This document shows positions 1-8,761 of a DNA stretch of 64,000 nucleotides, piece by piece. This DNA is from Candidatus Hodarchaeota archaeon. GTDB taxonomy: Archaea; Asgardarchaeota; Lokiarchaeia; Sigyniarchaeales; SOKP01. The translations under genes and the position numbers were made by a program. Positions within the stretch are counted from its first letter, which is position 1. Each line of letters begins with the position of its first letter. The DNA lies in the NCBI GenBank assembly GCA_048887225.1, contig JBHLJY010000008.1, forward strand, positions 1-64,000, in the 5' to 3' direction. Below the pieces are notes generated by a model that did no database searches, was not told the origin of the DNA, and worked only from the letters and a program-made list of their open reading frames with translations.

Positions 1-178
1 TCACGTCTATCGGCTTGTCACTATAGATCGGGTTATCCGGCTGTGGAGCCATGTGGGAAACGCTCGCCTTTTTTAGAGAGAAATATTCCCCCGGCTTCGC
101 GTTATCGTACGCATTTCTAACCATTTCAGAGATCGCTTCTACTTTTCTTCTATGTATTGCTAGTTTTTCTTCGCTCAT
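1..178 (-). CDS. 5' part of a CDS running off the window; possibly the 2-hydroxyacyl-CoA dehydratase-like partner of the upstream gene
   Basis: ATG at 178 with AGGGTG upstream; frame open to window edge (MSEEKLAIHRRKVEAISEMVRNAYDNAKPG...). Product inferred only from context. Confidence 0.55.
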   Translation of the reverse strand, partial: MSEEKLAIHRRKVEAISEMVRNAYDNAKPGEYFSLKKASVSHMAPQPDNPIYSDKPIDV

Positions 179-272
179 GTCAAACACCCTTTAAAGCAAT
201 TCGGATTAATATAATTAAAATTTATTTTAAACCAATAAATAAATATTTTTTTTTCTTTTTCTCTTTCTTTTT

Positions 273-1337
273 TTAAATTATCTTTAATTTAGGTTTCTGT
301 TTTTCCAATCCCAGCTTTTCTTCTCTTTCCTTCTTTCTTTTGATCATATCGGTAAAACTTTGAACGCGTGTTAACATTCCTACATCAGAGCTATGTTCAT
401 CAATTATAATTGCGAGATGTGGAATTCCTACAGCTTTCATGTCATGCATTATTAATTCTGATATAAGGCTATCCGGACCACAAGCGAAGCTTATGAGGAA
501 GATAACTCCATCTATTTCATTGCGCCCTTTAAATAAAAAATATCTAATTGCCTGCATAATTTCCTCTTCATGTCTCCAGTAGTTTCTCAATTTTTTGTTA
601 ACAATTACTGGTTCCTTAAAGATATGTTCTGGCAAGTTCTCAATCGTTATTACCTCAACATCTTGATCGTTCAATTTTTTTGCGAAATCTAAATTTACAT
701 AAGTATCAAAGAGATTATAAGCATGCCCTAATAATAGGAATTTAATAGAACCCTTACTTTTTCTTTTTGGTGATTTGAAAGGGACGTCTCTTAAAACTAG
801 TCTTAAAGCATGATTGACAGAAACTCCTTTCCTTAAAAAATCTAAATACTCCCGGTAAAATTTTTGGGCTTTTTTATATGCCTCTAAAGAAGCAGACCGA
901 TTTTTGCCTAGTTGCTTACCAAGTTCTATTACTGCTGTTGCAATTGGAAATTCCTTCACATTTACTTCGAAATTTAATAATTTTGGACAACTTGGCAAGA
1001 TTTTAATGACATCTGGGAGAGATATCCATTTAGGACAGAAGTAAGATTCCTTCAACTCAGAAACATATCTCGGAACAAATAAAAAGTCTAAATCAGGATG
1101 TTCATTTATTAATTTGAGAGCGTGGCCGTAATATACTTTTACAGGTAGACAAAGTTCTCCGAATCCGTGCATTACACCTACTTCTACGATTTTCTTGTTA
1201 GTTGGTGTGCTAAGTATTATCTCAACATCTAACTCATCAAATAATTTCTTCCAGAATGGAAAGAATTTGAAATAATGGAGAGCCCGGGGTATACCAACTT
1301 TAATTTTTTTTAGAGAACTTTGCTGGTTTGATTGCAT
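273..1337 (-). CDS. DUF2229 / acyl-CoA dehydratase activase-related protein (PlsA/Ger reductase-domain-like)
   Basis: KVGIPRAL..FPFW, ELCLPVKVYYGH, YFCPK, SFACGPDS, DEHSS..G..TR motifs typical of the family. Confidence 0.85.
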   Translation of the reverse strand: MQSNQQSSLKKIKVGIPRALHYFKFFPFWKKLFDELDVEIILSTPTNKKIVEVGVMHGFGELCLPVKVYYGHALKLINEHPDLDFLFVPRYVSELKESYFCPKWISLPDVIKILPSCPKLLNFEVNVKEFPIATAVIELGKQLGKNRSASLEAYKKAQKFYREYLDFLRKGVSVNHALRLVLRDVPFKSPKRKSKGSIKFLLLGHAYNLFDTYVNLDFAKKLNDQDVEVITIENLPEHIFKEPVIVNKKLRNYWRHEEEIMQAIRYFLFKGRNEIDGVIFLISFACGPDSLISELIMHDMKAVGIPHLAIIIDEHSSDVGMLTRVQSFTDMIKRKKEREEKLGLEKQKPKLKII

Positions 1338-1358
1338 TTTATTTGCGTCCTATTGAAT

Positions 1359-3017
1359 TTAGACGTTTGGGTTGTTATAAAACATTAAGTCCTTTATTTT
1401 GGCCATCAGATTATTAGTTATCCTTTTCAGCTCGTCATAACTTGGCATTTGCTGATCGAAATATTTTGAATGTTCCATAAAAGGCTCACCAGCTTTAAAT
1501 ATACATCCTTTTCCGAAATTTAACATTTTAGCGTGTTTTGGATATATATTTTCGGAACCTGTCGCTCCAACTGGGATAATGGGTACTTTTGCTTCAATTG
1601 CCAAACGGACTGCTCCAGTATGTCCTTCCAGTAGTACTCCGCCACCTGGATTTGTTGTTCCTTCAGGATAAACGACAACAAGCTCACCTGCTTCTAATAG
1701 ATCTTTCCCAGTATTATAAGAGCTTATATCGTGTTCTCCCCTCCTTAGTGGGAATGCAAGATGTGTTCTAACCCATGCGTTTACAACTGGTATTTTGAAT
1801 AAAGACTCCTTTGCCATTTGATATAATTGGCGACGTCCATTTTTCCATATGGCTAAAGGAAGCATTAGTACGTCCCACTCTGAATTATGTCCACTTGCAA
1901 TAAGAGCTCCGCCTTCCTTAGGAATATGCTTATCAAAATCAATCGCTTTAATTGGATTAATAAGGTCAGTATAAGCTTTTAATATTGAACCCGTGAAGCC
2001 ATAAATAGGCTTCGTAAATGCGTCTCGTGCACCGATCATCTCTAGACTTTTAAGAAGCGCAAACCAAAAATCGTCAATACCCCATAAAATATTGTGTCGA
2101 ATATTTTTAAGAATTTTTTTAACTCCACTTGATTTAGGTGTATCTTCCATATCTTCAGGGTATCCTATTGAAAGTTCTTTTGACTTCTCATCATTGCCTT
2201 CGTATAAGTCAATTATGATTTGTTGTAATTCATCAGTCAATTTTCGGATTTCAGGGTAAGACACTTCCCTACCGTAATAATCCCAATAATATATTGGTTC
2301 TCCGCGACGACAAGTTACCTTAGTTGGTTTCATTACTAACTTGCCCTTTGGAAGAGCATCACGAGATCCGATAACTGCGCATGGTACTATCGGTACGCCC
2401 ATTTCAAGCGCAAGTCTGATAGCTCCAGTACGAAATTCTTGAACAGTTCCATCTTCAGAACGCGTACCCTCAGGAAATACACCTATATATTGCCCATCTT
2501 TGAGTAATTCCCTTGCTGTTTCAAAACCTTTATCTGGGTCATCACGATCAAGCTCAAAAGCACCTAAATTCTTGAAAAGAGTTGTTACTAAAGGTGTTTT
2601 AAAGTTTTCTTTTTTGGACATCCATCTAATTGGTTTATAGACCGCTCCACCAACGAAGAATGGATCTAAATGGGAATTATGATTTGATACTATTACGGCA
2701 CCACCATGCTCGGGAGGAATTGGACCTTCTACGCGATAATTCCAAAATAGACGCATCGCTGCTTTACACCATATTCCATAAGCAATCCACCATTGAAATT
2801 CGTCAGCTTCCTCTTGTATAGTGAGCTTATCGAGAATGGAACGTATAAAATTGTTAATAGGGTCAATAGGGTTTAACTTTAAGAGTTTATAAATCCAATT
2901 ATGCGTTTTCTTTTTATAGAGAAGTTCCTCTGGCTCTTTCTGTTCAATTTCATATTTTACTTTTTCTTTTTTTAATTCTCCTTCATGTGCTTTCAAATCT
3001 GACTTAGGTATTTCCAT
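1359..3017 (-). CDS. plsC: tandem two-domain PlsC-family (lyso)phospholipid acyltransferase
   Basis: Two full catalytic sets: SNHNSHLD...FPEGTRS and SGHNSEWD...YPEGTTN; both followed by G-A-x-RLA-x-E-x-x-VPI. Confidence 0.9.
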   Translation of the reverse strand: MEIPKSDLKAHEGELKKEKVKYEIEQKEPEELLYKKKTHNWIYKLLKLNPIDPINNFIRSILDKLTIQEEADEFQWWIAYGIWCKAAMRLFWNYRVEGPIPPEHGGAVIVSNHNSHLDPFFVGGAVYKPIRWMSKKENFKTPLVTTLFKNLGAFELDRDDPDKGFETARELLKDGQYIGVFPEGTRSEDGTVQEFRTGAIRLALEMGVPIVPCAVIGSRDALPKGKLVMKPTKVTCRRGEPIYYWDYYGREVSYPEIRKLTDELQQIIIDLYEGNDEKSKELSIGYPEDMEDTPKSSGVKKILKNIRHNILWGIDDFWFALLKSLEMIGARDAFTKPIYGFTGSILKAYTDLINPIKAIDFDKHIPKEGGALIASGHNSEWDVLMLPLAIWKNGRRQLYQMAKESLFKIPVVNAWVRTHLAFPLRRGEHDISSYNTGKDLLEAGELVVVYPEGTTNPGGGVLLEGHTGAVRLAIEAKVPIIPVGATGSENIYPKHAKMLNFGKGCIFKAGEPFMEHSKYFDQQMPSYDELKRITNNLMAKIKDLMFYNNPNV

Positions 3018-3030
3018 AATTTTTAACCTC

Positions 3031-3822
3031 TTACGATTTTATTTTTAGAGAAGCTTGAACTTTTGAATTTGAAATATGACCATGTTTAATCCCAATAAGA
3101 TCTAATAATTCTATTATCGAATCAACCAATAAATCTGGCTGGTATTCAGCTAAGACTTCTTTTTTACTTATACCACTTGCTATACCAATGGTACATATTC
3201 CTGCCTCTTTTCCTGCTTCAATATCAGTTGGCATATCTCCAAATAACACCCATTCAGATCCTTTAACCTTTTCATATTGCTCCAGAATAGGGAGAAAAGC
3301 ATCTGGGTGTGGTTTTAATGCGGGAAGCTTATCTGCGCCATATATTTCTTTGAAATATTGATCAATTTCTTCTTTTTCTAAAGTTTCTATAATACTTCTT
3401 GTTTGATTATGAGACACTACAAAAAGAATACAATTTTTCTTAAGAAAAGAAATTAGTTCTTTGGAGCCAGGAAATATCGTTGCTTCTTTTGAGTATTGCT
3501 GGTATTTTCCAAAGATTTTCAATGCGATGCGAAATTTTTTCAGATATGTTAAATTATTCAAAGTAGTTATAGCATTGAAGATTTCATATGATTGAAGTAA
3601 TATTTTGGGAATGGGATACCCTTGGATTGATTGCAATGTAGCTCCAATTTCTCGTATTGTAAGTTCCATGTCAGTTTGGATGTTTTTTTCATTAAGAACT
3701 TCTTCTATTGATTTTTGAAGGGGGTCCATGATGTCCAACAATGTGCCATCAAAATCAAAAATAACTCCACGAAATGAGCGCGAACGAAGTTTTTCGATTA
3801 TATTTTGATCGTGACTTGTCAT
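3031..3822 (-). CDS. HAD-superfamily phosphatase
   Basis: FDFDGTL motif I, KPHP, GDMPTD motif IV. Confidence 0.9.
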   Translation of the reverse strand: MTSHDQNIIEKLRSRSFRGVIFDFDGTLLDIMDPLQKSIEEVLNEKNIQTDMELTIREIGATLQSIQGYPIPKILLQSYEIFNAITTLNNLTYLKKFRIALKIFGKYQQYSKEATIFPGSKELISFLKKNCILFVVSHNQTRSIIETLEKEEIDQYFKEIYGADKLPALKPHPDAFLPILEQYEKVKGSEWVLFGDMPTDIEAGKEAGICTIGIASGISKKEVLAEYQPDLLVDSIIELLDLIGIKHGHISNSKVQASLKIKS

Positions 3823-4037
3823 TTCAAATTCAAAAATTATTCTATAGCTCTATATCGATATATATCGTTTATTCAAATAGATATTTATACAATTAAAATT
3901 ATAATTTTATTTTTAAAGATAATCAACTATTTCATACTTTCTGAAGTATTAAACTATTAACAATCGTATTAAAATTTCAGTAAAAAGTTAATAAAAAAAA
4001 AAGAAGTCAGTTGGATTTTAGAGTTTAGACAATAAGA

Positions 4038-4784
4038 TCATTCTAATGATAGAATTTTTTTCATCCACTTAGGCATTAAAAATCCGATGTAATAAAATAT
4101 CATTGAAAGCACTATAATTGTCCTAAATATTATTAAATCTACTGCACCATATTCGATTAATGCGTCACCAAATGCCCCGATTGGAAATAAAATAAATGAA
4201 ATTAACAGAAATCTACCTTTCCAAATAACTGCGGGATTATCTATTACATTCATAGATATAATAGAAAAATTTATGCCAGTAAAAAGAGTTACCACGATAC
4301 AAAATGCCAAAAAAATTATAACAAAACTTCTATATGTTATGTCATTAGGTTTATGTTGAATTCCGATCATGTTAATAATAGGGGCATCAGGGGCAAAAAA
4401 TAGAAAATAGAAAAGGTAAATATAGAATATTATGAATAAAATTGTAAAACAGATTAAAACCAATTTTTTTTTCTTTGGATGTAAAGTTGACATATAGATT
4501 TCAAGCCAAGCTATAAGTGCAACTGGTATAAATATCGTTCCCATTAAAACATATACTTGATAAGAAAAAACATTGCCAGTGAATAACCAATATACGTATC
4601 CAAATCCACTGGGGTACCATGGCGACATTATGAAAATTACAGCGAAAAAGAAATAGAAAAGTATTTTTTCTCTTTTCCTAATTGCCTTATGAAGAATAAT
4701 TGCTCCAAGAGTAAGCGAAAATAAACTTTGAAGAAAGGCCAGTAATCCTGAGAGTTGAGAGATTAGATCCAATTCTACAACCAA
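4038..4784 (-). CDS. stand-alone ~7-TM membrane protein (paralog of 8036..8761)
   Basis: About seven hydrophobic segments; PWYPS and C-terminal G-F-L-M-P-K-W motifs shared with 8036..8761. Confidence 0.75.
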   Translation of the reverse strand: MVVELDLISQLSGLLAFLQSLFSLTLGAIILHKAIRKREKILFYFFFAVIFIMSPWYPSGFGYVYWLFTGNVFSYQVYVLMGTIFIPVALIAWLEIYMSTLHPKKKKLVLICFTILFIIFYIYLFYFLFFAPDAPIINMIGIQHKPNDITYRSFVIIFLAFCIVVTLFTGINFSIISMNVIDNPAVIWKGRFLLISFILFPIGAFGDALIEYGAVDLIIFRTIIVLSMIFYYIGFLMPKWMKKILSLE

Positions 4785-4950: not shown

Positions 4951-6372
4951 ATGACTAAACCAAATTCAGAATATTCTGAGATTTCACTTACTAAAACATT
5001 TTGGCCTTTATTTTTATTAAATGGTTTTCAACATATTTCGTTTGGAGGTATAATTATCTTAATAGTTCCTTTATCTTTATTAATGTGGCCAAACGATGCA
5101 TATCATGCAATTGAGATGGGTATTCTAATTACAATATTATTTTGGAGTGATTCTTTAGCAGGGTTGGTATTTGGAAGGTTTATTGATAAATATTCTCGTA
5201 AAACAATAATAATTATTATTTCTTTCTTTAGAGGGGGTTCAATGATTATGCTGGGATTTGCTTTTATAGGGAGGGGATTAGAAACATGGATGTACTTTGT
5301 TTTTTTCACACTTATCTTTGGTGTATTTGCGGGCGGATCATGGCCTGCGGTAGTCTCCATTTCTCACGATGCCGTCCCATATCATCAGCGATCTCGATTT
5401 TTCGGGTATTATCAAATAATGAGAACAATTTCTACTGTATTAGGTTTTTTAATTGCGAGTTATTTAGTGCAAAATGGATTCTGGAGGCAATTTTTCATAG
5501 GAGTTGGCTCATGCATCTTGATTATGGGTTTTATCTTCGGACTACATAATAAAGAACCTAAGAGAGGTTCTCAGCGTGAGGAATTAATGGATATTCTTCA
5601 AGATGATTCAATTGAATACAACTTCCAAATTGATAGATCAACGATGAGGAAAACTATGCTTAGCAAAACAAACAAAGTGGCACTAGTTGAAGGGATTTTT
5701 ACTATGGTTCTTATGGGGAGTTTAATAATCTTGATTTTACCATACGTTCAGAGCCCACCTCACAATATATCCCCATTTTCGACTAGTGTTTTTTTAGTAA
5801 TTTTCGGTTTAACCGGCGGATTATTAGGGACAATTATACTAGCAAGGTTATGCGACAAAGTAGCTAAAGAAAAGCCTATAATAAGATTGCCAATAATAGT
5901 ATTCTCTATTGTTGGAGGTTTGATTATGTTTGTATTAATTTTCTTTCTTCCTTTACCACACTTAACAGTTGAGCAAGGGAAAAATGTTTCTTATTTAATG
6001 TCTTTGCCAATTATTTGGGTTATGGGAGCATTTTATTTTAGTTCTCGCTCAATCTTCTCTCTTTATATTGTCAACCAAGCACCAATTTTACAGGAGATTA
6101 ATCTTCCCGAAGCTCAAGGGCAAATAATTTCTTGGAATCAATTCTTGGAATCAATGGGACGTGGTATCGGACCTGTAATTGTGGGAATTCTATTAGTAAT
6201 ATCAGGAACAAATTATCAATTTGTAATAACGATAATTGTGTTATGTATTATACCTGGGATTATCCTATGGATGCTTGCATTAAAATGGTTTCACGATGAT
6301 TCACTAACAATCAAAAAAATTCTTGAACAACGAGCCGAGATTTTAAAAACACAACAAAACAAGTCTAATTAA
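4951..6372 (+). CDS. MFS transporter
   Basis: ~12 TM; motif A GRFIDKYSRK; paralog of the next gene. Confidence 0.88.
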   Translation: MTKPNSEYSEISLTKTFWPLFLLNGFQHISFGGIIILIVPLSLLMWPNDAYHAIEMGILITILFWSDSLAGLVFGRFIDKYSRKTIIIIISFFRGGSMIMLGFAFIGRGLETWMYFVFFTLIFGVFAGGSWPAVVSISHDAVPYHQRSRFFGYYQIMRTISTVLGFLIASYLVQNGFWRQFFIGVGSCILIMGFIFGLHNKEPKRGSQREELMDILQDDSIEYNFQIDRSTMRKTMLSKTNKVALVEGIFTMVLMGSLIILILPYVQSPPHNISPFSTSVFLVIFGLTGGLLGTIILARLCDKVAKEKPIIRLPIIVFSIVGGLIMFVLIFFLPLPHLTVEQGKNVSYLMSLPIIWVMGAFYFSSRSIFSLYIVNQAPILQEINLPEAQGQIISWNQFLESMGRGIGPVIVGILLVISGTNYQFVITIIVLCIIPGIILWMLALKWFHDDSLTIKKILEQRAEILKTQQNKSN

Positions 6373-6469
6373 TTTACAATGTTTTGTAAGAAATTCAAAT
6401 TCAATATATTCAAATTTAAAATCTCATTTCACAAGTCAATCATAATTTTTTAATTTAATAGCCAATGTC

Positions 6470-7903
6470 ATGAGTACTTCAAATTCCTTAAATAGTTCTA
6501 AATTTTCCATAAGCCGCCATTTTTGGTCTATGTTTTTGTTAGCAGGCTTCCAAAGTTTGGCTTTTGGAGGATTTATTATACTTGTTGTACCATTATCATT
6601 TATAATATGGCCTAATGATCCCTATCACGCACTAGAAATAGGAATTTTAGTTGCCTCGTTATTTTGGATAGCATCACTCGGCGGGGTTATTTTTGGGATT
6701 TTAATTGACAGATTTAACAGAACGAAAATAATTTTTTTCATATCAATATTTAGAGGTTTTAGCATGATCATGCTTGGATTTGCAGTTGAAGGAAAAGGTT
6801 TTGAGACTTGGCTCTATTTTTTAGTATATGTGTTAATTTTTGCTTTTTTTACTGGAGGAAGTTGGCCTTCTATTGTTTCCATCTCAAATGATATTGTTCC
6901 AAAACTTTATAGATCGCGATTTTTTGGAGCTATGGGGATTATGATGGGATTATTTACTACATTTGGTTTTTTAGTGGCTTCTGCTTTTGTCCAATACGGT
7001 TATTGGAGGCTTTACTTTTGGTGGATAGGGATATCAATTATTATAGCTGGTTTTATCTTTTTTATTCATGTTAACGAACCTAAAAGAGGAAGCCAACAAG
7101 AAGAACTAATCCACATCCTTAAAGATGATTCTATCGAATATAATTTTCAAATAGACCGAAAAACAATGAAAAAGACAATGCTCAGTAAAACTAATGTTGT
7201 TGCGTTAATTGAGGGTATTTCAACTAATATTCTCATGGGTAGCCTCTATTTATTAGTTTTACCTTATATTCAGACCGAACCTCATAACCTTTCTCCGGTT
7301 TTTACTGGTCTTTTTTTAATTGTATTTGGTTTAACTGGGGGATTACTTGGTCAATTTTTTCTTGCTAAGTTATCGGATAAAGTTGCTGAAAATCGTCCAA
7401 TAAGTAGAATATATTTTATAATCATAGCTCTTAGTGTGGATGTTATTACATTTGTTGTGTTGTTTTTTATTCCTTTGCCATATTTAACAGTAGAACAAGG
7501 ACGAGATATTCCATATCTATTTTCGATACCAATGATATGGATTTGGGGTACTTTACTCTTTACTTCTAGTATAATTTCTTCACTATATTTGGTTAATCAA
7601 GCTCCTCTATTACAAGAAATAAATTTACCTGAAGCACAAGGAAAGATTACTTCATGGAATCAATTGGTGGAGAATATTGGTTTTGGTGCGGGACCCTTAA
7701 TAGTTGGAATCCTCTTATCTATCTCCGGGGTAAATTATCAGTTAACTGTAATAATAATCTCTCTTCTAATTATTCCAGGAATCTTGTTATGGTTTTCATG
7801 TTTGAGGTGGTATCCCCAAGATAAACAAGTAATAAAATCAATTCTTAAAGAACGAGCAGAAGCGCTTAAATCAAGGCATAATAATTCTCCAATGAAGAAC
7901 TAA
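6470..7903 (+). CDS. MFS transporter (tandem paralog)
   Basis: GILIDRFNR motif A; shares EPKRGSQ, KTMLSKTN, NQAP.LQEINLPEAQG blocks with 4951..6372. Confidence 0.88.
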   Translation: MSTSNSLNSSKFSISRHFWSMFLLAGFQSLAFGGFIILVVPLSFIIWPNDPYHALEIGILVASLFWIASLGGVIFGILIDRFNRTKIIFFISIFRGFSMIMLGFAVEGKGFETWLYFLVYVLIFAFFTGGSWPSIVSISNDIVPKLYRSRFFGAMGIMMGLFTTFGFLVASAFVQYGYWRLYFWWIGISIIIAGFIFFIHVNEPKRGSQQEELIHILKDDSIEYNFQIDRKTMKKTMLSKTNVVALIEGISTNILMGSLYLLVLPYIQTEPHNLSPVFTGLFLIVFGLTGGLLGQFFLAKLSDKVAENRPISRIYFIIIALSVDVITFVVLFFIPLPYLTVEQGRDIPYLFSIPMIWIWGTLLFTSSIISSLYLVNQAPLLQEINLPEAQGKITSWNQLVENIGFGAGPLIVGILLSISGVNYQLTVIIISLLIIPGILLWFSCLRWYPQDKQVIKSILKERAEALKSRHNNSPMKN

Positions 7904-8035: not shown

Positions 8036-8761
8036 ATGGCACTAACACCTATTGAAAGTCTCATTGGTCTTTTTAGTCTAATTTTTTCTATAATAGCCAC
8101 TATTATAGGTCTTCTTATTACATCAAAATATCGTAAATATAAAAAAAATACTTTACTTTATGTTGGTCTTTCCTTACCAGGATTAGCATTTCCATGGTAT
8201 CCAAGTAGCATCTCTTTTTTAACGACACTAATGATCGATCAAAGTCTTTCACGTGAATGGTATTTTTTAATCGGAAACGCTTTTCTCCCAATAGCATTAT
8301 TACTTTGGATATTGGCACTAACAGAACTTATTTTAAAAAAAAAACAAAAAATCATCTTAATAACATATACAGTTATTGGAATAATTTTTGAAATATATTT
8401 CTTTTACAGCCTCTTTACAACTCCTGATGTAATCGGGGAATTGAAAGGACCTGTTGATGTTGAATATTATGGAATTACGAGGTTATACCTAATATTTGTT
8501 GTATTAACAATAATTGTAACAGGTTTATTATTTGTTATCGAATGTCTTAAATCTGGCAATCCTGAAATCAAGTTAAAAGGAATATTTCTTCAGATCGCTG
8601 TTATTTTATATACCATTGGTGCTGTTGCTGATGGTTTTATGACTCTAACTTTTGTGACATTACCAATAATAAGAATAATTCTGATCTCAAGTATAATTAT
8701 GTTTTATAACGGTTGGATTTTACCTGAATCTGTGAAGAAACTATTTTTAAAGCAGAAATAA
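8036..8761 (+). CDS. stand-alone ~7-TM membrane protein
   Basis: Hydrophobic segments; PWYPS motif; GWILPESVKK end matches the paralog. Confidence 0.75.
   Translation: MALTPIESLIGLFSLIFSIIATIIGLLITSKYRKYKKNTLLYVGLSLPGLAFPWYPSSISFLTTLMIDQSLSREWYFLIGNAFLPIALLLWILALTELILKKKQKIILITYTVIGIIFEIYFFYSLFTTPDVIGELKGPVDVEYYGITRLYLIFVVLTIIVTGLLFVIECLKSGNPEIKLKGIFLQIAVILYTIGAVADGFMTLTFVTLPIIRIILISSIIMFYNGWILPESVKKLFLKQK

Follow-up and report, generated by a model that had tools for sequence, protein, structure and literature searches.

The window, that is, the whole 64,000 nt stretch of DNA that was analysed, has its first position at one end of contig C8, and positions 1 to 3822 contain the 5' half of an operon conserved in Lokiarchaeia. 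The first-pass annotation had described four co-oriented genes here, with gaps of 13, 21 and 94 nt, encoding an HAD phosphatase, a double PlsC, a DUF2229 protein and a cut downstream product; recomputation placed all of them on the minus strand with the same gaps, and Pfam matches and ORFs bore out each assignment. The following features were identified.

1..187, minus strand: start of the gene F806 (first 59-62 codons; start at ATG 178 or GTG 187), cut by the contig end
188..272, no strand: AT-rich spacer between Da and F806, read from the sequence
1337..273, minus strand: Da, a DUF2229 'Red1'-type Fe-S subunit of 354 aa (PF09989, E 2.7e-42)
3017..1359, minus strand: PlsC2, a tandem two-domain PlsC-type acyltransferase of 552 aa (PF01553 matched twice, E 4.3e-60)
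3822..3031, minus strand: HAD-IA (Gph/COG0546-like) phosphatase of 263 aa, with which the operon begins (PF13419, E 2.4e-28)
3823..4037, no strand: AT-rich region of 215 nt upstream of the HAD gene, read from the sequence
4951..7903, plus strand: pair of MFS transporter genes in tandem, encoding 473 and 477 aa (PF07690, E about 1e-32)

Because the window begins at the contig end, truncation of the ORF at position 1 is an assembly effect. The region at 3823..4037 is likely the operon promoter region, with TATA-like elements roughly 40-90 nt before the HAD ATG and a T-run after the stop of the upstream gene. Metatranscriptome contigs from three libraries in three studies covered pieces of HAD, PlsC2 and Da, one of them (151 nt) spanning the HAD/PlsC2 junction; as RNA libraries can contain DNA, this is weak support for expression of the operon.

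In relatives, the full operon runs from HAD, PlsC2 and Da through Db and a BcrAD/BadFG ATPase to a PlsC-fold protein in which the catalytic His is absent. Db is a second Fe-S subunit with partial DUF2229/HGD-D matches and an invariant Cys triad (C49/C79/C307), and the gene after it encodes a separate, single-domain ATPase (PF01869/TIGR00241) in which the two cluster Cys are kept in CAAGTG and RCTVF and a C-terminal 4-Cys motif is invariant. The first-pass annotation had suggested looking for flanking HGD-D and BadF/BcrAD genes; relatives carry the missing parts in the form of Db and the ATPase, whilst in this genome only the C-terminal 205 aa of the ATPase turned up, on contig C22, whose end also carries the PlsC-fold gene. 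The ATPase piece is 99 % identical to its counterpart in the closest relative, and the PlsC-fold gene 95 % identical. Db and most of the ATPase gene were not found in the assembly, Db most likely lying in the gap beyond the contig end.

PlsC2 was located immediately 5' of Da in 19/19 relatives' loci, with gaps of 13-30 nt, and as these loci had been fetched blind, by DUF2229 match, the arrangement is not due to chance. The PlsC-Da-Db-ATPase core was also retained in Promethearchaeum syntrophicum MK-D1 and Ca. Harpocratesius repetitus, so that plsC linkage across Lokiarchaeia, on which the earlier proposal leaned, is kept family-wide and in the sister family holding MK-D1. It is highly improbable that a PlsC gene and an unrelated Fe-S module merely travel together here, adjacency having no functional meaning. 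In keeping with such an explanation, insertions cluster at the Da-Db junction, a hot spot for them, and gene order varies downstream of Da, but the invariant, closely spaced PlsC2-Da pair argues against it, as does a PlsC-Da linkage that persists at the order level despite a different PlsC architecture. The operon ends in a further PlsC-fold gene whose product is catalytically dead, and in two genera a PlsA/PlsR-like pair (a 977-985 aa BBD protein plus one of 469-474 aa) is inserted within the same cluster, both of which also speak for a functional association.

PlsC2 scored 168.9 bits against TIGR00530 (cut-off 102.95), and its first domain aligned over about 175 residues to the Thermotoga maritima PlsC structure (PDB 5kym; E 2.4e-19). 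The catalytic motifs read HNSHLD/PEGTR in domain 1 and HNSEWD/PEGTT in domain 2, and HX4D and PEGT(R/T) were retained in both domains of 9/9 orthologues; both active sites are intact. Genome-wide (98 % completeness), the two domains of PlsC2 were the only PF01553 matches, making it the genome's only canonical PlsC; PlsY and the GpsA C-terminal domain were not found in this genome with the queries used. Among the best 120 matches, the two-domain form occurred only in Promethearchaeota-type MAGs. Candidate acceptors for PlsC2 would be G3P, G1P, a lyso-lipid or archaeal GGGP, and candidate donors acyl-CoA or acyl-ACP.

The HAD protein carries the DxDxT motif (FDFDGT, residues 22-27) within an HAD core with a C1 cap, and also matched PF00702 (E 1.6e-21). 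Its best solved relatives are predicted phosphatases, and no NCBIfam equivalog reached its cut-off. HAD was found upstream of PlsC2 in all nine family-level loci read, directly in eight and with one intervening ORF in the other (L026); it does not adjoin the PlsC cluster in MK-D1 or Harpocratesius, and its linkage is thus limited to the window's own family. That it dephosphorylates the lipid product is a guess.

The two MFS proteins are 59 % identical to each other, their genes diverge from the operon, and an MFS orthologue adjoins or lies near the operon in 5/9 family loci, making them possible, unproven operon partners. They bear on a reading in which phospholipids of foreign origin, bacterial or eukaryotic, are salvaged or remodelled by the products of the cluster, whereby the MFS proteins import lysolipids, PlsC2 re-acylates them, HAD trims phosphate and the reductase plays a secondary role or none in new lipid classes. 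The apparent lack of PlsY and GpsA suits such a pathway, and both PlsC2 (E 9.8e-31) and, weakly, the two MFS proteins (E about 1e-5) matched models of MFS-acyltransferase (lysophospholipid transporter/Aas-type) fusions. The MFS matches are, however, at the level of generic MFS proteins and far below the model cut-offs, several genera and MK-D1 do not have the MFS linkage while that between PlsC and Da is invariant, and salvage gives no reason for an ATP-driven Fe-S reductase in the same transcription unit. We therefore consider salvage quite unlikely.

Da contains a PF09989 Red1 domain with its three-Cys site and is the unfused counterpart of the first PlsA/Ger reduction domain. C63, C101 and C286 were invariant in a 134-sequence alignment (Da plus 133 homologues 300-399 aa long) and in a second one of 90 sequences that overlaps with it, as were Y207 and D313, with K67, H72, E314 and H315 nearly so; the CxP, FCP and CGPD motifs are common to Da and the Red1 domains of BBD proteins. 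The AF2 model of Da (pLDDT 94.9) had as its 20 best PDB folds exclusively BCR/HAD catalytic subunits, with Foldseek E values of 7e-11 to 3e-06 and TM scores of about 0.45-0.56 against dehydratase and reductase catalytic subunits. The first-pass annotation had proposed a comparison with the true 2-hydroxyacyl-CoA dehydratases, among which Da does not belong: it scored 27.7 bits against HGD-D (PF06050), below the cut-off of 28.4 and over residues 171-332 only, and its match to HadC covered about 60 residues. Weak matches of this kind scored 27.7-29.4 bits, compared to 130-340 for the five canonical HGD-D pairs that the genome encodes at other loci, whose matches span the whole profile. The Had, Hgd, Fld and Lcd systems lie in operons with CoA-transferase and 2-hydroxyacid dehydrogenase genes, neither of which turned up in the window or among the loci read from relatives. 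Taken together, the sequence comparisons clearly indicate that Da is not an amino-acid-fermentation dehydratase.

The Da, Db and ATPase parts list matches the domain schemes published for Ger, with its BBD(H/D) architecture kept in all ether-lipid producers (PMC13159169), and for PlsA, arranged as Act1-Act2-Red1-Red2 (PMC12838417). As the whole explanation of the locus, we favour, at a little short of even confidence, a conserved operon that would acylate a glycerol backbone and then convert the ester to an ether by means of a split reductase. PlsC2 would attach fatty acyl chains through ester bonds to a backbone of glycerol-phosphate or lyso-lipid, its two domains possibly performing two successive acylations. 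The ATPase would form a homodimer bridged by a [4Fe-4S] cluster, in which ATP hydrolysis drives a low-potential electron into the Da/Db heterodimer. Modelling the reaction on the fused bacterial PlsA/PlsR and Ger, which act under anoxic conditions on an sn-1 acyl ester, we infer that Da/Db, with a three-Cys Fe-S site per subunit, may reduce the lipid ester carbonyl to an alk-1-enyl or alkyl ether. The observations themselves comprise gene content, motifs, family membership, fold, synteny and the tree; substrate, product and the part played by HAD are inferences.

The relationship between fused and split forms complicates this picture. Da does not have the BBD architecture, in which two BcrAD_BadFG domains lie N-terminal to Red1, as it carries no ATPase domain. 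In the Red1 tree, the PlsC-linked Lokiarchaeial Da clade (98-99 SH-aLRT) stood apart from a fused BBD clade (99); these were quick trees, and the nine rows of the BBD clade included the MK-D1 fused protein, which is probably the published Ger homologue, and a Clostridial single-gene form, with no characterized PlsA or Ger sequence among them. The Red1-Red2 match pattern of Da and Db recurs both in the fused proteins of about 1400 aa and in bacterial Da-Db fusions of 690-770 aa. In bacteria, Da-Db-ATPase modules stand on their own among changing neighbours, as would suit an enzyme with a substrate found everywhere, a membrane lipid for instance. One Clostridial genome has the fused form alongside a split module, and MK-D1 carries the fused form, the PlsC-linked module and a second split module. 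As the two forms coexist in single genomes, they probably differ in substrate or product and are probably not interchangeable.

These observations also favour an alternative in which the split Da/Db/ATPase is a paralogous ATP-dependent radical enzyme acting on a substrate other than that of PlsA and Ger. Candidates would be an acyl-CoA or another acyl thioester, an acyl chain bearing a hydroxy or oxo group, or a lipid intermediate of the isoprenoid type, and the enzyme would then prepare or modify the chain transferred by PlsC2 instead of reducing a glycerol ester. The solved relatives of the Da fold use CoA thioesters (HadBC, BzdNO, MbdON) or a small molecule (DCCP), and a Red1 paralogue fused to a flavoprotein named Delta(24)-sterol reductase (see below) suggests that the family has been recruited to varied lipid chemistry. 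Conversely, the characterized PF09989 enzymes so far known use glycerolipid esters (PMC13159169, PMC9702350), the loci read contain no CoA-transferase, CoA-ligase or hydroxyacid dehydrogenase genes in the operon, and the five canonical HGD-D systems already serve CoA substrates in this genome. We regard this alternative as somewhat unlikely, and as less likely than the ester-to-ether reading. Of what the first-pass annotation had claimed, the parts of an ester-to-ether operon, their family and their linkage stand, including membership of the DUF2229 protein in the Pfam family of the PlsA/PlsR/Ger reduction domain, whilst placement outside the fused clade and the missing BBD architecture do not agree with it.

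The cut gene at the contig end belongs to a different unit. Its fragment was 89-98 % identical to the N-terminus of ORFs of 803-837 aa in relatives and had no similarity to Db; full-length F806 is about 806 aa long and combines an FAD_binding_4 flavoprotein domain with a second DUF2229 domain (PF01565 and PF09989 by Pfam in the orthologue). A second reductase subunit or an activase was accordingly ruled out for this gene, which is the start of an FAD_binding_4-DUF2229 fusion. F806 heads a cassette with an ATPase and an Fe-S subunit that is inserted here in some genomes, and the spacer at 188..272, with TATA-like runs 5' of the F806 start, is the boundary of the insertion; positions 199-274 recur on contig C33 with 74 % identity. 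Nucleotide similarity to other genera (94-98 %) ends at position 187, where contigs from other samples also diverge and depth is about three times higher. In this genome the cassette, a paralogous set of three genes, was inserted directly behind Da, and the contig ends within it. The full F806 orthologue was 54 % identical to a protist protein automatically named 24-dehydrocholesterol reductase, and the automatic name of the Atlas cluster nearest to it is Delta(24)-sterol reductase, no characterized DHCR24 being part of the comparison. Flavoproteins resembling Delta(24)-sterol reductase are of the C=C reductase type, and we offer as an unlikely but specific extension of the ester-to-ether reading a two-step route to non-isoprenoid ether glycerolipids in Lokiarchaeia, in which the split reductase would make a vinyl ether from an acyl ester formed by PlsC2 and the F806 cassette would saturate it to an alkyl ether. 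Such a route would represent a modular, archaeal equivalent of the bacterial PlsA and Ger systems and, in a lineage close to eukaryotes, a way across the lipid divide.

PlsC and fused Ger homologues have already been published for Lokiarchaeota (PMC13159169, PMC6737245), and a link between PlsC and a reductase in one operon was not found in the literature searched. Against the ester-to-ether reading stand the missing PlsY and GpsA matches, which bear on the supply of the acyl acceptor, the absence of Db and most of the ATPase gene from this assembly, and a lipid analysis of MK-D1 that reported archaeal isoprenoid lipids only, by a method that may miss ester lipids (PMC13400652). The genome's only fatty-acyl glycerolipid acyltransferase nonetheless lies in one conserved operon together with a protein related to, but not fused like, the bacterial ester-to-ether Fe-S enzymes. 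The operon provides a defined, unproven gene set for asking whether Asgard archaea make bacterial-style ether lipids.

In comparison with known systems, PlsC2 carries the HX4D and PEGTR motifs of bacterial PlsC (LPAAT, T. maritima 5kym) but differs in having two complete acyltransferase domains in a single chain. The closest counterparts of the reductase module are the glycerol ester reductase Ger of Thermotoga maritima (Tmari_0479) and Desulfatibacillum alkenivorans, and the anaerobic plasmalogen synthase PlsA/PlsR, CPE1194/1195 in Clostridium perfringens and a single-gene PlsA in Enterococcus, Lactococcus and Bifidobacterium. Shared with these are a BcrAD/BadFG ATPase, a full DUF2229 Red1 with the three-Cys motifs, in the operons of relatives a degenerate DUF2229/HGD-D Red2, an anaerobic lineage and a module without CoA-handling genes. 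In contrast to PlsA and Ger, where two ATPase domains are fused N-terminally, the predicted Lokiarchaeial system consists of three separate proteins, encoded as Red1-Red2-ATPase, and has a single ATPase domain; Da falls in a separate Red1 clade, and the operon includes PlsC-type acyltransferases and, in the window's family, HAD. The published Lokiarchaeota Ger homologues (PMC13159169) come from the same phylum and superfamily and raise the same ether-lipid question, but are BBD proteins of about 1400 aa at other loci (for example L069 in MK-D1), without PlsC linkage in the loci read; Da, at 354 aa, would probably miss the 30 % query-coverage filter of that study. HadBC/HadI, HgdAB/HgdC and class I benzoyl-CoA reductases resemble this system in the catalytic-subunit fold of Da, in pairing two paralogous Fe-S subunits as a heterodimer and in having an ATP-dependent activator that belongs to the same family of ATPases, whereas Da is only 10-16 % identical to them and lies outside any CoA-transferase context.

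The window starts at the end of a contig (C8) in a 3.27 Mb assembly that is 98 % complete (G000), and the first-pass annotation had described a candidate ester/ether lipid operon at positions 1–3822. Near-identical proteins in the databases bear names that assign the genome to the Promethearchaeota/Lokiarchaeia. ORF calls bore out its four co-oriented minus-strand genes, separated by gaps of 13, 21 and 94 nt, and Pfam and NCBIfam upheld the HAD, PlsC and DUF2229 family assignments. The features were as follows, the first three from Pfam/NCBIfam family calls and the last from ORF reading:

3822..3031, minus strand: HAD-IA phosphatase, 263 aa
3017..1359, minus strand: PlsC2, a tandem protein with two PF01553 acyltransferase domains, 552 aa
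1337..273, minus strand: Da, a DUF2229 Fe-S protein, 354 aa
ATG 178 or GTG 187, running off the contig, minus strand: truncated ORF, the start of F806 (a fusion of FAD_binding_4 and DUF2229 domains)

Five family-level genomes showed the whole operon, among them the closest relative (G002, locus L031), with the gene order HAD, PlsC2, Da, Db, ATPase and a PlsC-fold protein. Db, of about 395 aa, gave partial DUF2229 and HGD-D matches, whilst the ATPase (about 340–360 aa) matched PF01869 and TIGR00241. The reductase partner and activase for which a reading of the flanking sequence had been proposed therefore lie downstream of Da in relatives, and part of the ATPase was located in G000 itself. The end of contig C22 carries the ATPase C-terminus (205 residues, 99 % identical to G002) and the PlsC-fold gene (95 %), in the orientation predicted for a join between C22 and the start of C8; a search of the G000 assembly for Db gave no match. 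The last gene of the operon was placed as follows:

G000 C22:41614-42324 (L036:358-1068), minus strand: PlsC-fold gene; L031:9720-10430 in the relative

Contigs from three metatranscriptome libraries, each from a different study, matched portions of the HAD, PlsC2 and Da genes with 90–99 % identity, and one of them spanned the HAD/PlsC2 junction. This is a weak hint that the operon may be transcribed, because RNA libraries can contain DNA.

Linkage to plsC was conserved, with PlsC2 adjoining Da upstream in all 19 loci fetched by a match to Da alone, and HAD lay upstream of PlsC2 in all nine family loci (directly in eight, with one intervening ORF in L026). Two members of the sister family, Promethearchaeum syntrophicum MK-D1 and Ca. 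Harpocratesius repetitus, have Da, Db and the ATPase downstream of an active PlsC with a single domain, and the latter species also has a PlsC-like ORF without the motifs. Close orthologues among 151 genomes of the phylum were found only in the window's own order, plus one probable contaminant, and a contig search with a narrower alignment gave matches confined to Asgard loci. One other family in the phylum carried paralogues 31–36 % identical; the two loci there that reached the ATPase were complete Da–Db–ATPase modules without PlsC, and a third showed Da–Db only. The operon described in the first-pass annotation is real, and it is conserved.

Upstream of HAD, window positions 4038-4784 (minus strand) and 8036-8761 (plus strand) encode paralogous polytopic membrane proteins of 248 and 241 aa, 33 % identical and without a Pfam family, and these two genes flank a tandem pair of MFS transporters. 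Besides the window, the gene for the 248-aa protein adjoins HAD only in the closest relative. The transporters were considered as LplT-type lysolipid transporters, but the matches were generic and sub-threshold, and the idea was retained as a weak lead. The AT-rich spacer after Da (window 199-274) recurs at C33:4287-4363 in G000 with 74 % identity and may represent an intergenic or promoter element common to both sites.

PlsC2 retains HX4D and PEGT(R/T) in both domains in all nine orthologues examined, its first domain is alignable to the solved T. maritima PlsC, and a genome search returned its domains as the sole PF01553 matches in G000. In the PlsC-fold protein (229–261 aa in relatives), the HX4D histidine is replaced by lysine and PEGTR by PEARL or similar in five genera; judged by these residues it is probably not an acyltransferase, and it might bind lipid as a non-catalytic partner of the reductase. 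Regarding backbone supply, neither PlsY nor the GpsA C-terminal domain was found in G000 with the Pfam queries used, and an Fe-ADH_2 search for G1P dehydrogenase gave weak matches only, in 400–450-aa alcohol-dehydrogenase-like ORFs.

The AlphaFold model of Da was confident (pLDDT 94.9), and its 20 best PDB matches were all catalytic subunits of the benzoyl-CoA reductase/2-hydroxyacyl-CoA dehydratase superfamily of radical enzymes, including the double-cubane protein, at TM-scores of about 0.5 and 10–16 % identity. Three cysteines of Da are invariant in a 134-sequence alignment (Da and 133 homologues of 300–399 aa), and Red1 domains from fused proteins show these motifs as well; Db has a separate invariant cysteine triad. 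The ATPase keeps the two cysteines that, in HgdC-type activators, bridge a [4Fe-4S] cluster. Beyond the ATPase fold, each of the 11 split-module ATPases examined, from archaea and bacteria alike (L031:8406-9491 and 10 others), carries an invariant C-terminal CxxCxxxC...C motif, which might provide a further metal or Fe-S site. The existence of Da–Db fusion proteins, together with the HadBC precedent, implies that Da and Db would form a heterodimer.

Unlike fermentation dehydratases, Da is covered by HGD-D only in its C-terminal part and at about the cut-off, and it is clearly not such an enzyme, an alternative that the first-pass annotation had set down for checking. No CoA-transferase or hydroxyacid dehydrogenase genes lay beside the module in the loci read. 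Elsewhere, G000 encodes two small activases and five genuine HGD-D pairs, three of them in one array, suggesting that the genome is amply equipped for 2-hydroxyacyl-CoA dehydratase or BCR-type chemistry:

C27:7052-15493: array of three canonical HGD-D pairs
C3:73949-76209 and C1:188940-194213: remaining canonical HGD-D pairs

Trees of Red1, the first and full reduction domain of PlsA/Ger, were rooted on the degenerate second domain (Red2), with a Clostridial fused form standing in for named PlsA/Ger references. Fused forms made up one clade (99 SH-aLRT), including the Clostridial single-gene form and the sole fused form located in MK-D1, which is presumably the Ger homologue already published. 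A second clade (98–99 SH-aLRT) comprised PlsC-linked Da, the F806 domains and one Omnitrophota protein. The suggested affinity to PlsA/PlsR/Ger therefore holds at the level of the DUF2229 family, whilst Da itself falls outside the PlsA/Ger-type clade. One Clostridial genome (Anaeromonas frigoriresistens by its source name) encodes both a fused 1426-aa PlsA-type protein (L093:4787-9067) and a separate Da–Db–ATPase module (L059:5368-8402), and MK-D1 has three systems of this family, so the paralogues are unlikely to be redundant. The Clostridial pairing also indicates that in bacteria, too, the unfused branch is an enzyme family of its own that is still uncharacterised; the bacterial split modules are self-contained, and their neighbours vary. 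The main rival to an ester-reducing role is that Da, Db and the ATPase catalyse a paralogous reaction with some other acyl or lipid substrate. Reading the genes together, we tentatively regard as the most likely function that PlsC2 would make an acyl glycerolipid and that Da/Db/ATPase would reduce it to an ether in an ATP-driven reaction, at somewhat less than even confidence.

The truncated ORF was ruled out as a second reductase subunit, having no similarity to Db. It was instead 89–98 % identical to the N-terminus of F806, an 803–837-aa protein of relatives that begins with a FAD_binding_4 flavoprotein domain and ends with a DUF2229 domain sharing about 40 % identity with Da. F806 heads a three-gene cassette with an ATPase and an Fe-S subunit, which share 52–54 % and 39–41 % identity with their counterparts in the operon, the ATPase and Db, respectively. 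Sister-family subunits were equally similar to both sets, which are therefore co-orthologues duplicated within the window's family. Cassette sites and the accompanying PlsA/PlsR-like pairs, each a 977–985-aa BBD protein (two ATPase domains N-terminal to Red1) and a 469–474-aa protein without a Pfam match, were as follows:

Window 1-187: start of the F806 cassette
L055:8614-11034, minus strand: F806 cassette
L062:3781-8641: F806 cassette
L063:2353-7150: F806 cassette
L062:8975-13335 (G143): PlsA/PlsR-like pair
L024:10019-14404 (G019): PlsA/PlsR-like pair

Some genomes carry the cassette at an unrelated locus. In G143 it follows the PlsA/PlsR-like pair inside the cluster, and in G019 the same pair is followed by the F806 start and then the contig end; the pair is thus inserted between Da and the cassette in two genera, giving three paralogous reductase systems per cluster. 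In G155 the cassette sits directly between Da and Db with Da fragments on its flanks, an arrangement very probable in G010 and G000 as well. F806 was far better conserved than its neighbours (94 % nucleotide identity to another genus, against about 75 % at the protein level for Da) and its 90 %-identity cluster has 246 members; across genera the cassette was 86–98 % identical and the neighbouring genes about 70 %. This suggests that the cassette recently spread or recombined into the Da–Db junction. Similarity to other genomes ends at window position 187, a point marked by divergence among contigs from other samples and by roughly three times the depth. Conservation, multiple sites and this breakpoint together explain why several assemblies, including G000, break inside F806. 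No further copies of window 1-187 were found in G000, where the cassette is probably collapsed or unassembled.

The nearest solved relatives of the F806 flavin domain were cytokinin dehydrogenases (E 1.5e-18), ruling out alkyl-DHAP synthase (E 0.007) as its closest relative. Its nearest database relatives were standalone 'FAD-binding oxidoreductases' of about 450 aa from Asgard archaea and Deltaproteobacteria. One protist match is named 24-dehydrocholesterol reductase and the nearest Atlas cluster Delta(24)-sterol reductase, both automatic names and only leads.

It is still unexplained how eukaryotes, with membranes of fatty-acyl esters, arose from a host whose lipids were archaeal isoprenoid ethers, and we know of no product found so far for Asgard PlsC or fused Ger homologues. 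Here one conserved unit, also found in cultured MK-D1, links the genome's only acyltransferase with a reductase that is ATP-driven and belongs to the ester-to-ether family. The outcome is a small defined set of five to six genes open to anaerobic expression and assay, a lipid class to seek in cultures (monoalkyl or alk-1-enyl glycerols) and, in anaerobic bacteria, a large branch of unfused DUF2229 proteins that is still uncharacterised. PlsC and PlsY homologues of Lokiarchaeota have already been published (PMC6737245; see also PMC13400652), as have their fused Ger homologues, including that of MK-D1 (PMC13159169); neither the split module nor its association with PlsC in an operon was found described in the literature searched. 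On fused proteins of ~1400 aa, a Da-type profile matched a full Red1 followed by N-terminal and C-terminal fragments, and bacterial Da–Db fusions behaved alike. This pattern agrees with the BBD(H/D) architecture of Ger (PMC13159169) and the Act1-Act2-Red1-Red2 scheme of PlsA (PMC12838417), and the Lokiarchaeial module is therefore their part-for-part unfused counterpart, making the operon a new unfused, acyltransferase-linked form of a known kind of enzyme.
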